Part shown: positions 4,982-28,253 of the stretch, in pieces
Position numbering within the stretch: position 1 is the first letter of the stretch
How the letters are laid out: each line of letters begins with the position of its first letter
Source of the DNA: Thermoplasmata archaeon
GTDB taxonomy: Archaea; Thermoplasmatota; Thermoplasmata; Lutacidiplasmatales; UBA184
Reading direction: 5' to 3'
DNA length: 64,000 nucleotides
Assembly (NCBI GenBank): GCA_035502475.1
Contig: DATJUJ010000021.1
Coordinates: 5,098 to 69,097 of the forward strand
Notes under the pieces: generated by a model
What the model was told of the DNA's origin: nothing
Database searches by the model: none
What the model saw: only the letters and a program-made list of their open reading frames with translations
Translations under genes and position numbers: made by a program

Positions 4982-6605
<1,624 letters not shown>

Positions 6606-6616
<11 letters not shown>

Positions 6617-7952
6617 CGGCGGCCTCAACGCGGAGTGGAAGGCAAGCGAACGCTGGAAGGGAATCGTACGCCCGTATCGCGGCGCCGACGTGGAGCGGCT
6701 CCGTGGCTCGGTGCGCATCGCCTCGACCCTCGCGACCATCGGGTCCGAGCGGCTCTGGCGCCTGATCCGGACCGAGCCGTTCGTCCCGTCGCTGGGGGCG
6801 ATGACCGGCACCCAAGCGGTCCAGATGGTCGCTGCCGGGCTGCCCGCCATCTACGCGAGCGGCTGGCAGGTCGCGGCCGACGCCAACACGGCGTCCGAGA
6901 CGTACCCCGACCAGAGCCTCTATCCGGCCGACAGCATGCCGACGCTCGTCCGGCGGATCAACAACGCGTTCCGCCGCGAGGACGAAAAGCAGCACGCCGC
7001 CGGCAAGGACGACGTCTACTGGTACGCTCCGATCCTCGCCGACGCGGAGGCCGGGTTCGGCGGGACCCTCAACGTCTTCGAGTTGACGAAGTCGCTGATC
7101 GACGCGGGGGTCGCCGGCCTCCACATCGAGGACCAACTGGCCTCGGTGAAGAAGTGCGGCCACATGGGCGGGAAGGTTCTCGTGCCGGCGCGCGAGTTCA
7201 ACCAGAAGCTCTGGGCGGCCCGGCTCGCGGCCGACATCCTGGACGTCCCGACCGTGCTGCTCGCCCGCACGGACGCGCTGAGCGCGAAGCTCCTCACCAG
7301 CGACGTCGACCCGCGCGACGCCCCGTTCCTCACGGGGAAGCGCACGCCGGAAGGGTTCTTCGAGATCACCGGCGGCCTCGATATGGCGATCGCCCGGGGC
7401 CTGGCCTACGCGCCGTACGCGGACCTCCTCTGGTTCGAGACGTCGAGCCCGGATCTCGACGAGGCGCAGCGGTTCGCCGACGAGATCCACCGGGAGTTCC
7501 CGGGGAAGTTCCTCGCCTACAACTGCTCTCCGTCGTTCAACTGGCGCAAGAAGCTCTCGCCGGAGACCATCGCGGAGTTCCAGACGACGATCGCGGAGAT
7601 GGGCTACAAGTTCCAGTTCGTCACCCTCGCCGGGTTCCACGCGCTCAACCTTTCGATGTACCGGCTGGCCCGCGGCTACGCCCAGCGCGGCATGGCCGCC
7701 TACTCCGAGCTCCAAGAAGAGGAGTTCCTCGCCGAGACCGAGGGGTATGCCGCCGTGAAGCACCAGTCGTTCGTCGGCGCGGGATACTTCGATGAGGTCG
7801 CGCAGGTCCTCTCGGGCGGGCTCACCACGACCCTGGCCATGGAAGGGTCGACCGAGCAGGAGCAGTTCCAAAAGCCACCGGCGGCCCCGCCGACCGAGGC
7901 CGGTCCGGGGGCCCGGGCCCGACGGCCCGCTCGCGGCTCGACGACCCACTGA
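6606..7952 (+). CDS. aceA: isocitrate lyase (short bacterial type)
   Basis: 448 aa; [16 protein letters not shown], signature [29 protein letters not shown]; overlaps aceB. Confidence 0.97.
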
Positions 7953-11320: not shown

Positions 11321-11351
11321 GGCGGACGAGCCCGGGGCGGCTCGATAAACG

Positions 11352-11375
11352 CCGAGGTTCCGTACGGAACCTCGG
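11352..11375. promoter_or_regulatory. perfect 24-bp palindrome (putative operator) between back-to-back TATA-like boxes
   Basis: CCGAGGTTCCGTACGGAACCTCGG equals its own reverse complement; TTTATC on minus (11344-11349) and AAATAG on plus (11381-11386) flank it. Confidence 0.7.
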
Positions 11376-11407
11376 GTCGCAAATAGCCGGGCCCGTTCCG
11401 CTCGGCG

Positions 11408-12145
11408 ATGACGCAGGCCCCGTGGGACGAGTTCGCCGGCGAGAAGTTCCGCGACGAGCTCACGAAGTACAAGATGGCGAACCACCCGTTCGCGACCCAT
11501 CCGTTCTTCGCCCGGCTCGAGCGGGGCGAGGTGCCGAAGCCGGTCGTCCAGGCGTGGGTGAAGCAGTTCTACCCGTGGCTCGCCTGCGTGCCGATCGCGA
11601 TGGCCGAGCGGTTCTCGAACGTCACGTGGAACCCCGCGCACGACCGGTACCGGCGCATGATCCTGGACCAGCTCGTGGAGGAGGCCGGCGACCCGAAGGG
11701 CAAGGAGCCGGGCCACCCCGAGCTCTGGCTCCGGTTCTGCGAGGGGCTCGGCGTTCCCCGGTCCGAGGTCCAGGGCGCGCCGCTCCTCCCGAGCACGATG
11801 GTCGCGATCGACGATTTCCTGTACACCAACCGCGTCAACCCGTTCTACGTCTCGGCCGCGGGTTCGTCGGAGCCTCCGAACGTCGACCTCTGCGCGCGGC
11901 TCCTCCCCGCCTTCCGCACGCACTACCACGTCCCCGAGGAGAACCTCGAGTACTACCGGCTCCACGTGACCGCCGACGTCGAGCACAGCGAGTGGATCGG
12001 GCAGATCGTGGCGGGGTTCGCGAACTCCCCCGAGGTCCGCAAGCAGATGTGGGAGCAGATGCTCCGAGGATTCTCGATCCACGCGCTCCTCGTCGACGGC
12101 GTGCTGGCGGAGTCGAACGGGGCCGCCGCACCCAAGCATAAATAG
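11408..12145 (+). CDS. heme-oxygenase-like diiron enzyme (CADD/PqqC/TenA superfamily)
   Basis: 245 aa; all six CADD-type metal ligands recognisable: LVEE, HPELW, SSE, HxxxDxxH (LHVTADVEH). Confidence 0.85.
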   Translation: MTQAPWDEFAGEKFRDELTKYKMANHPFATHPFFARLERGEVPKPVVQAWVKQFYPWLACVPIAMAERFSNVTWNPAHDRYRRMILDQLVEEAGDPKGKEPGHPELWLRFCEGLGVPRSEVQGAPLLPSTMVAIDDFLYTNRVNPFYVSAAGSSEPPNVDLCARLLPAFRTHYHVPEENLEYYRLHVTADVEHSEWIGQIVAGFANSPEVRKQMWEQMLRGFSIHALLVDGVLAESNGAAAPKHK

Positions 12146-27443: not shown

Positions 27444-28253
27444 ATGGCACGCGGACCCCCGTCGCCCGCGGTCTGGGTCCAGCTCGCCCAGTCGCTGGTC
27501 GCGCGCGAGCTGGTCCGGGAGTTCGGGCTCCCCGAACGACGGGCCGCCGACCTCCTGGGCCTCGCCCCGTCCGCCGTCTCTCAGTACCTCTCCGGCCGCC
27601 GGCTCGGGGGCCTCCTGGTCGGCGTCGCGGGCGACGACCACGCGCGGGCGATCGCCCGGGCGGCGGCCGAGGAGCTCGCGTCGCACCCGGAGCCGTCCGG
27701 GGAGACGCTCCGCATCGTGCTCGAGACCGCCCGGCGGCTTGCCGAGACCTCCGGCGTGCGGCCCGGACCCGCCCCCGGTCCGCCGGAGACCGCGCTGTCG
27801 GCCACCGACCGGCGGCGGCTCTCCGAAGCCCTTCGGGACCGCATCGCGCTCGAGCAGGCGGCCGTGGCGGAGTGCATGCGGCTCGCCCAGAAGTCCCGGG
27901 ACGAGCTGACGCGATCGATCTTCCGGCAGATCGCGGCCGACAGCCTGCGTCACGCCGAGATCGTCGCGTCGATCCAGACCTACCTCGACCGGGGGCTCCA
28001 TCGGCCGCTGGCGAGCGGCGTCACGCGCCACGACATCGAGGCGCTCCTCATGCGGGAGCGCGAGGCGGAGGCGCAGGGCTCGACCGACCCGGGCTCCGAG
28101 TTCGGCGGCATCATGTCGGTCCTCTGGGAGAGCATGGTCTCGGACGAGCGGAAGCACGAGGAGCTCCTGGCGCAGATGCTCGCCAGCGCCTTCGCGCCCG
28201 CCAAGGTCCGTCGGCCGACGGGTCCGCCGGCGCCCGGAACGAAACCGCCGTAG
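27444..28253 (+). CDS. HTH transcription-regulator domain fused to a ferritin/rubrerythrin-like four-helix domain
   Basis: ATG 27444; N-terminal ERRAADLLGLAPSAVSQYLSGRR HTH; C-terminal ALEQAA, DSLRH, EREAE, DERKH. Confidence 0.75.
   Translation: MARGPPSPAVWVQLAQSLVARELVREFGLPERRAADLLGLAPSAVSQYLSGRRLGGLLVGVAGDDHARAIARAAAEELASHPEPSGETLRIVLETARRLAETSGVRPGPAPGPPETALSATDRRRLSEALRDRIALEQAAVAECMRLAQKSRDELTRSIFRQIAADSLRHAEIVASIQTYLDRGLHRPLASGVTRHDIEALLMREREAEAQGSTDPGSEFGGIMSVLWESMVSDERKHEELLAQMLASAFAPAKVRRPTGPPAPGTKPP

Follow-up and report, generated by a model that had tools for sequence, protein, structure and literature searches.

Heme-oxygenase-like dimetal oxidases (HDOs) form a rapidly expanding class of enzymes whose unusual reactions include alkene formation, N-oxygenation, nitrile formation and self-sacrifice. 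Many of them act on substrates: UndA converts a fatty acid to a 1-alkene, BesC fragments 4-Cl-lysine, HrmI, BelK, SznF and RohS are N-oxygenases, and AetD and FlcD also belong to the substrate-acting kind. We know of none among them that is paired with a CoA-transferase and an acyl-CoA dehydrogenase (ACAD), and of none that is archaeal. In CADD and NePabS, by contrast, the enzyme consumes residues of its own (Tyr27 and Lys152 in CADD, Tyr25 and Lys159 in NePabS) in making p-aminobenzoate (pABA) (PMC11965152; PMC13108848). Tyr41 of NePabS, which corresponds to Tyr43 of CADD, is essential for pABA formation (PMC11965152), and the consumed and essential residues are needed in NePabS and, as cited in PMC11965152, in CADD (PMC11965152; PMC13108848). 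Here we consider an HDO gene in a stretch of 64,000 nucleotides (the window) from a Thermoplasmata archaeon of the Lutacidiplasmatales, whose product (the target) had been described in a sequence-only reading of the same open reading frame as a CADD-like enzyme acting on an external substrate. We hold, with moderate confidence, that it is an O2-activating dimetal oxidase and not a pABA synthase, and that it is co-regulated with a divergently transcribed CoA-transferase/ACAD operon and likely handles the same carboxylic acid.

Metal site, family and distribution of the oxidase

The open reading frame is a real gene under purifying selection, as shown by a confident fold model, a clear Pfam match and pairwise dN/dS values of 0.10-0.33 against relatives. 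The AF2 model (built on a 92-sequence alignment) is all-helical, with pLDDT 95.6 and pTM 0.90, and the protein matches Haem_oxygenas_2 at 60.5 bits (gathering cut-off 28.9). In Foldseek comparisons the best PDB matches of the model were PqqC (TM 0.84) and Chlamydia trachomatis CADD (TM 0.76/0.86), followed by UndA, TenA homologues, HrmI and BesC; across PqqC, CADD, UndA, BesC and HrmI, TM ranged from 0.68 to 0.86. The Pfam family TENA_THI-4 is matched only in part (residues 29-136), and the complete metal site speaks against membership of the TenA thiaminase II group.

Residues were mapped by multiple alignment with CtCADD, PqqC, PDB entry 9pj4 (which is nearly identical to the NePabS peptides given in PMC11965152) and 119 outside relatives, the CADD numbering being read from the 1rcw alignment of the PDB search (HTFY gives Y27, and E142+10 gives K152). 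Each of the six CADD ligands has its counterpart in the target: E81 aligns with E92, H88 with H103, E142 with E155, H174 with H186, D178 with D190 and H181 with H193. This set of three histidines and three carboxylates on the core helices (EHEHDH) is complete in the target and invariant in 119 members of its family. The sacrificed tyrosine (CADD Y27, NePabS Tyr25, in the motif H-x-F-Y) is replaced by F34 (HPFF), and the amine-donor lysine (CADD K152, NePabS Lys159) by L165, ten residues past the ligand E155; both replacements are invariant in the same 119 family members, and a phmmer alignment to 9pj4, a 4-aminobenzoate synthase, agrees in placing Phe and Leu at the two sacrificial positions. 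The manual alignment of the sequence-only reading, which had reported all six ligands together with exactly these two substitutions, was thus correct. C162 and R164 are likewise invariant in the 119; residue 164, which adjoins L165, is Arg in the target and Lys in two further genera of the family (g4 and g5).

Further departures affect the residues around the sacrificial pair. The essential CADD Y43 (NePabS Y41) is W50 in the target, and the radical-path residues Y47 and Y141 are F54 and S154; W92 (W107), Y48 (Y55) and Y170 (Y182) are kept. In PqqC the alignment places His and Arg at CADD positions 27 and 152, which line the substrate cavity of that enzyme. In the target, the region around F34 and L165 is predicted to be hydrophobic, because Phe and Leu at these positions stand beside F33, W50 and F54.

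Family models separate the target from its best-known relatives. It scores 70.8 bits against the NCBIfam CADD model TIGR04305 (cut-off 200), 53.6 bits against the PqqC model TIGR02111 (cut-off 240) and 15.7 bits against NF042919, the model for BesC-type fragmenting HDOs (cut-off 500). Elsewhere in the window's own genome (G000, an assembly of 1.56 Mb estimated to be 81% complete) there is a paralogue of 220 aa, 32% identical to the target and encoded on the minus strand at C34:37750-38412 (L013:1375-2037), outside the window. This protein passes TIGR04305 (216.7 bits, cut-off 200) and reads KHPFY and YAYESIFPEVAAEK, so that the sacrificial Tyr, the second and third Tyr, the Trp and the Lys at E+10 are all kept; it is to all appearances a canonical archaeal CADD-type pABA synthase, and would have that role in its own genome. 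Most genomes of the window's genus (g1) carry a canonical CADD, which suggests that self-sacrificing pABA synthesis occurs in Lutacidiplasmatales-type archaea. The two proteins are independently distributed, both being present in g1, CADD only in one genome of the same family (G278), the target only in another (G074), and neither in two genomes of genus g2.

In a tree of 133 rows, 51 proteins with the Tyr/Lys pair, including CtCADD, 9pj4 and the paralogue just described, lie on one side, and the target family (support 100, on a long stem) lies on the opposite side, where it groups with uncharacterised ligand-bearing groups that have varied residues at positions 27 and 152 and neighbours the PqqC clade. 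Among the outside representatives, 105 of 119 keep the EHEHDH ligand set and 48 of 119 have Tyr/Lys; ligand-bearing relatives that are not sacrificial would therefore be common, and the target family appears to be one of them. Since the needed residues are absent, the score is below the family cut-off, a canonical paralogue is encoded in the same genome and the protein falls outside the Tyr/Lys clade, we reject pABA synthase identity and conclude, from comparison of sequences, that the target is most probably not a self-sacrificing enzyme of this type. The sequence-only reading had come to the same view from two substituted positions, to which the third (W50) can now be added. Its picture of a CADD-like enzyme lacking the self-sacrificed residues was right about the residues, and imprecise in its choice of relative, as the target clade is not nested within the CADD clade and groups near PqqC.

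The protein is confined to a narrow lineage. More than 120 clusters are 74-91% identical to it, and every match named by organism is a metagenome-assembled genome of Thermoplasmata/Lutacidiplasmatales; an exhaustive search of 1.84 billion representatives gave a single full-length cluster (clusters being drawn at 50% identity) together with fragments, the next match being 34% identical. Among 301 genomes of the class, it was found only in a single family of the Genome Taxonomy Database (GTDB), f1: in all 29 sampled genomes of g1, in g3 (61-71% identity), g4 (55%) and g5 (53%, present in one genome of two); in g2 there is a fragment at the end of a contig. It is an orphan form, specific to its lineage, of a superfamily already known. 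Lutacidiplasmatales are acid-soil archaea of about 69% GC, predicted to be aerobes or facultative anaerobes (PMC9287336), a lifestyle that fits an O2-dependent enzyme; the window, at 72% GC, fits this composition. The nearest outside clades of orphan HDOs are 27-30% identical to the target and are found in catabolic-looking clusters (L057 4065-8636; L059 3370-6091), one with two HDO paralogues, NMT1/THI5-like binding proteins, an amidohydrolase, a class II aldolase and a 2-hydroxyacid dehydrogenase, and the other with two short-chain dehydrogenases/reductases (SDRs), an M20 peptidase and an amino-acid permease. The clusters of the outside relatives P0128 and P0138 are of catabolic type and have no CoA genes; the contigs of two others, P0126 and P0139, are too short to reveal any gene context.

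The divergent CoA operon and the shared operator

Divergently transcribed from the HDO gene are genes for a family III (CaiB/BaiF-type) CoA-transferase, which starts with GTG, and for an ACAD, whose start abuts the stop codon of the CoA-transferase gene, so that the two probably form one operon (Table 1). The closest named models of the CoA-transferase are CaiB and the succinate-glutarate and mesaconate CoA-transferases, all below cut-offs, and its closest PDB entries are CaiB and SUGCT. The best NCBIfam match of the ACAD is to cyclohexanecarboxyl-CoA dehydrogenase (226.8 bits, cut-off 575), and among PDB entries it is nearest to short-chain ACADs and CarC. The two enzymes thus give a weak hint about the substrate. 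The HDO gene adjoins this divergent pair in all the g1, g2 and g3 loci except one, and orthologues of the CoA-transferase are present in every f1 genome examined and are restricted to that family within the order.

Table 1. Features of the window at and around the HDO gene (positions are those of the window)
Feature	Position	Strand	Evidence or remarks
Acyl-CoA dehydrogenase (ACAD), 397 aa	8825..10018	-	Pfam Acyl-CoA_dh N, M and C domains
Family III CoA-transferase, 433 aa	10019..11320	-	Pfam CoA_transf_3, 348.7 bits; start codon checked
Spacer between the CoA-transferase and HDO genes, 87 nt	11321..11407
TATA-like box TTTATC	11344..11349	-	About 26 nt before the CoA-transferase GTG
Perfect 24-nt palindrome CCGAGGTTCCGTACGGAACCTCGG, core GGTTC-N6-GAACC	11352..11375		Conserved half-sites, variable spacer
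TATA-like box CAAATAG	11380..11386	+	About 25 nt before the HDO ATG; CCAAATA conserved in 30 upstream regions
HDO, 245 aa	11408..12145	+	Metal ligands, Pfam match, AF2 model, dN/dS
Shikimate and tryptophan (aro/trp) operon	12341 to ~27400
251-aa protein	27453..28205	+	Sub-threshold matches only

The short spacer between the two genes contains a TATA-like box for each and, between the boxes, a perfect palindrome. An alignment of thirty distinct relatives, anchored at the palindrome, showed only three conserved blocks (aTAA, GaGGTTCA-N4-G.AACCtC and CCAAATA), everything else in the spacer being variable, the centre of the palindrome included. Because the half-sites are conserved while the centre and the remaining spacer vary, the palindrome is putatively the site of a dimeric regulator; this is the pattern to be expected of an operator shared by two divergent leaderless promoters, and we infer from the position of its TATA-like box that the HDO transcript is itself leaderless. 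The pattern AGGTT-N8-AACCT occurs once in the 1.56-Mb genome, and a scan of that genome with a position-weight matrix, which is blurred by a one-base asymmetry of the 19-mers, gave only two convincing operator sites.

What happens to the operator when the two units are apart? There are two such genomes. In G074 (genus g4), TTCA-N4-TGAAYY has two matches genome-wide, one before the HDO gene and one before the CoA-transferase gene (a control pattern has none), and the two sites are identical at 21 of 26 positions, sharing CATTCA-N4-TGAACCT-N-TCCTGTTA. In G296 (genus g1) the HDO gene lies on contig C10 and the CoA-transferase/ACAD genes on C2, each with GGTTC-N6-GAACC beside a TATA-like box. Each unit having kept its own copy of the operator in both genomes, the comparison supports co-regulation of the HDO gene with the CoA-transferase/ACAD operon, and gives the link with these genes, which the sequence-only reading had thought probable, a firmer footing in the conserved operator between the two promoters. 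In g5 the CoA-transferase gene has GGTTCACCGGTGAAT, after which comes a TATA-like box. Further matches to TTCA-N4-TGAAYY in G126 and G278 have a tRNA-like or AT-rich, non-promoter context, and were treated as due to chance.

Just upstream of the CoA-transferase/ACAD operon, at 4982-7952, are genes for malate synthase and isocitrate lyase, the enzymes of the glyoxylate shunt, which would be consistent with aerobic growth on acids that yield acetyl-CoA.

Possible function, rival explanations and the wider regulon

What might the enzyme do? To judge from conservation of the ligands only, the HDO would load Fe/Fe or Mn/Fe and activate O2, and by analogy with UndA, BesC and HrmI it would act on a free small molecule at the metal site. 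It would be transcribed from a leaderless promoter, with an operator (GGTTC-N6-GAACC) common to the divergent operon, and one dimeric regulator would switch HDO, CoA-transferase and ACAD together. All three proteins would most likely work on one carboxylic acid: the CoA-transferase would make its CoA thioester, the ACAD would desaturate the thioester, and the HDO would use O2 to hydroxylate or desaturate the acid or its CoA ester, or to bring about oxidative C-C cleavage/decarboxylation of either, although the substrate of the HDO may also be the enoyl product of the CoA enzymes. Our best guess at the reaction is that a free small acid, or its CoA ester, is oxidised with O2. A search of the literature found no HDO linked to a CoA-transferase or ACAD.

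Several observations weigh against such a shared pathway. Orthologues of the CoA-transferase and ACAD (58-60% identity) occur in three f1 genomes that have no HDO (G023, G168 and G278), so the CoA enzymes work without it and the link is not obligatory. In G126 the palindrome before the HDO gene is GAGTTC-N5-GAACTC, with a spacing unlike that before the CoA-transferase gene of the same genome. GGTTY-N6-RAACC is found 3-11 times per genome, compared with 0-5 times for control patterns, so that single sites are not significant alone. In the literature searched, no characterised HDO is reported to act on CoA esters. All the comparative evidence comes from one archaeal family, and is inflated by shared ancestry. 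Finally, the type of operator found at the HDO gene also precedes a gene for an HTH_10 regulator and an mqnL-mqnP operon; the regulon may thus take in more than the HDO and CoA genes, and co-regulation need not mean a single pathway.

This last locus deserves a fuller description. At C34:32160-35355 of the window's own genome, the gene for an HTH_10 (Bat-type) regulator (C34:32160-32894) is divergent from a UbiD-family gene, which is followed by one for a UbiA/MqnP-like prenyltransferase; the UbiD-family gene passes the MqnL model 'menaquinone biosynthesis decarboxylase' (521.7 bits, cut-off 495.9). The spacer between regulator and mqnL holds GGTTCCGATATGAACC (C34:32918-32933), whose half-sites and spacing match those of the HDO operator, and the site is conserved across g1 as GGTTYC-(C/G)ATA-TGAACC. 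The HTH_10 protein is thus a candidate regulator of the HDO operator. A weaker operator-like palindrome, CGGTTCACCGAGGAACCCC, lies at C1:50941-50959, between genes for a proteasome beta subunit and an SdhA-like flavoprotein. In six f1 genomes searched (G000, G010, G105, G140, G074 and G023, one of them 100% complete), no MqnA/MqnD (PF02621) was found, nor any MenB above its cut-off, although MqnL and an MqnP-like gene are present; the early steps of quinone head-group synthesis thus appear to have no recognised genes in the lineage.

The most serious rival to a shared pathway takes up these findings: the HDO would belong to a pathway unrelated to the CoA-transferase and ACAD, serving some other O2-dependent process such as quinone or aromatic-compound chemistry, and the palindrome would be the site of a broader regulator, perhaps a sensor of oxygen, redox state, iron or quinone status, with menaquinone genes also under its control. 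We regard this as possible, if distinctly the less likely explanation. It would account for the conservation of GGTTC-N6-GAACC between the HTH_10 gene and mqnL-mqnP across g1, for the weaker site before sdhA and for the persistence of the CoA genes where the HDO is missing; it also agrees with the surroundings of the HDO gene in G074, described below. It does not sit easily with the rarity of the motif in that same genome, where both matches are taken up by the HDO and CoA-transferase genes and none is at mqnL, nor with the retention of the operator at both units when they are separated, nor with the way in which the HDO gene stays beside the CoA-transferase/ACAD genes whether or not an aro operon lies downstream. 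In a bolder proposal, which we think improbable, HDO, CoA-transferase and ACAD would make up a new O2-dependent pathway in which the HDO acts on a CoA-activated acid or its immediate precursor, feeding the aromatic head group of the archaeal menaquinone. What speaks for it is that MqnL and the MqnP-like protein are present without MqnA/D or MenB, that the HDO operator type recurs at mqnL-mqnP, and that in one genome the HDO gene adjoins genes for an AMP-ligase, an ACAD, a U32 protein and a chorismate mutase.

The other rivals stay closer to the CADD and PqqC relatives, and each is less likely again. The enzyme might still be self-sacrificing, consuming others of its own residues (for instance one of the conserved Tyr and Trp residues Y55, Y139, Y147, Y173, Y183, W50 and W107) to give a different small aromatic product; its relatedness to CADD with the same ligand set, its many invariant aromatic residues and the survival of parts of the CADD hole-hopping path (W107, Y55 and Y182) are what one would then expect. 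We think this unlikely, as invariant Phe and Leu, which are inert isosteres, stand where CADD has its sacrificed Tyr and its amine-donor Lys, the path has lost three more residues (Y43W, Y47F and Y141S), the clade does not fall inside the self-sacrificing one, and sister orphan clades are found in catabolic-type clusters with transporters, an amidohydrolase, an aldolase and SDRs. Very unlikely, in our opinion, is a synthase of pABA or a folate-related compound that uses free tyrosine or an intermediate of the shikimate pathway. Such an enzyme would explain the place of the HDO gene upstream of aro/trp (it precedes the ADH synthase gene in most g1 genomes), CADD is among the closest characterised relatives, and G074 has the target type and no canonical CADD; yet the score falls well short of the CADD cut-off, the essential residues have been replaced, most genomes carry the target together with a canonical CADD, and the aro/trp operon is an insertion or deletion that is missing from the site in about five relatives. 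PqqC-type, cofactor-less pyrroloquinoline-quinone (PQQ) synthesis is suggested by the best structural match, and many relatives of the target are named 'pyrroloquinoline-quinone synthase' by JGI. We regard this identity as effectively refuted: in addition to the low score against TIGR02111, PqqC has H/G/E/Q/D/H at the ligand positions where the target has the metal-binding E/H/E/H/D/H, and PqqE was not found above cut-off in five genomes of f1. Since PqqE is not present, the JGI name is in all likelihood wrong for these relatives.

Neighbouring genes and comparison with known systems

Downstream of the HDO gene is a shikimate and tryptophan operon with ADH synthase and DHQ synthase II, followed by the gene for the 251-aa protein (Table 1). 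In about five relatives that have no aro/trp operon at this place (L001, L009, L022, L026 and L028), a homologue of 251-266 aa directly follows the HDO gene, and the next genes are as in the window, for a tRNA endonuclease, a phosphoribosyltransferase (PRTase), CarS, an M20 peptidase, DUF2070, PcrB and UbiA. Because the flanking synteny is otherwise identical, the 15-kb operon represents an indel that separates the HDO gene from the conserved 251-266-aa gene, and its adjacency to the HDO gene looks incidental. The position next to the shikimate operon, which the sequence-only reading mentioned, thus carries little functional weight. A functional tie between the two was further downgraded by G074, where the CoA-transferase/ACAD genes are directly divergent from the ADH synthase gene and the HDO gene is on another contig.

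There (L043, G074:C52 8892-14011), the neighbours of the HDO gene encode an AMP-dependent acyl-CoA ligase, an AidB-like ACAD, a protein of the peptidase U32 family and a type II chorismate mutase. The pairing of a U32 protein with chorismate mutase presumably recalls the prephenate-dependent, O2-independent hydroxylases. As for the 251-aa protein, its sub-threshold matches are to an N-terminal XRE-type helix-turn-helix (HTH_3) and a rubrerythrin/ferritin-like segment, and it may be a metal- or oxygen-sensing regulator.

If the reading that we prefer is right, the clade would be an archaeal HDO group with defined regulatory partners, a CoA-transferase and an ACAD. The analysis also corrects a recurring mis-annotation, in which relatives are named 'PQQ synthase' or 'TenA regulator', and allows a true archaeal CADD to be told apart from the similar protein that these genomes also encode. 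With the conserved palindrome and the candidate HTH_10 regulator there is a practical way to look for the inducer, which would in turn point to the substrate; interest would rise if the substrate were indeed a CoA ester or a quinone precursor.

How does the target compare with the systems described at the outset? With CADD and NePabS (TIGR04305; 1rcw, 8va9 and 9pj4) it shares the seven-helix heme-oxygenase-like fold, a homologous site of three histidines and three carboxylates, the HPF motif and the residues equivalent to W92 and Y48. It differs from CADD at the positions of Tyr27, Lys152, Tyr43, Tyr47 and Tyr141, has a four-residue insertion between the ligand Glu and His (E-x10-H, compared with E-x6-H) and a two-residue deletion before the ligand E155, and coexists with a true CADD in its genome. 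PqqC (TIGR02111; 1otw), a neighbouring branch in the tree, resembles the target in having Trp where CADD has Tyr43 and a small polar residue where CADD has Tyr141, but lacks a metal site, for which the target has the full set of six ligands. UndA, BesC, HrmI, BelK, SznF, RohS, AetD and FlcD belong to the same superfamily, with a diiron site and free small-molecule substrates, and the target would be like them in its mode of action, although the similarity is remote (12-16% identity in Foldseek alignments).

For the neighbouring operon the closest parallels are CaiB/CaiA of carnitine metabolism, and succinyl-CoA:cyclohexanecarboxylate CoA-transferase with cyclohexanecarboxyl-CoA dehydrogenase. 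We know of no HDO partner described for either system, and scores against the CaiB and cyclohexanecarboxyl-CoA dehydrogenase models fall well short of the equivalog cut-offs (235.7 bits, cut-off 413, and 226.8 bits, cut-off 575). In CaiB/CaiA-type logic, CoA transfer activates the acid, and alpha,beta-dehydrogenation follows: the same succession of two enzymes appears to be encoded here, across a shared operator from the HDO gene.

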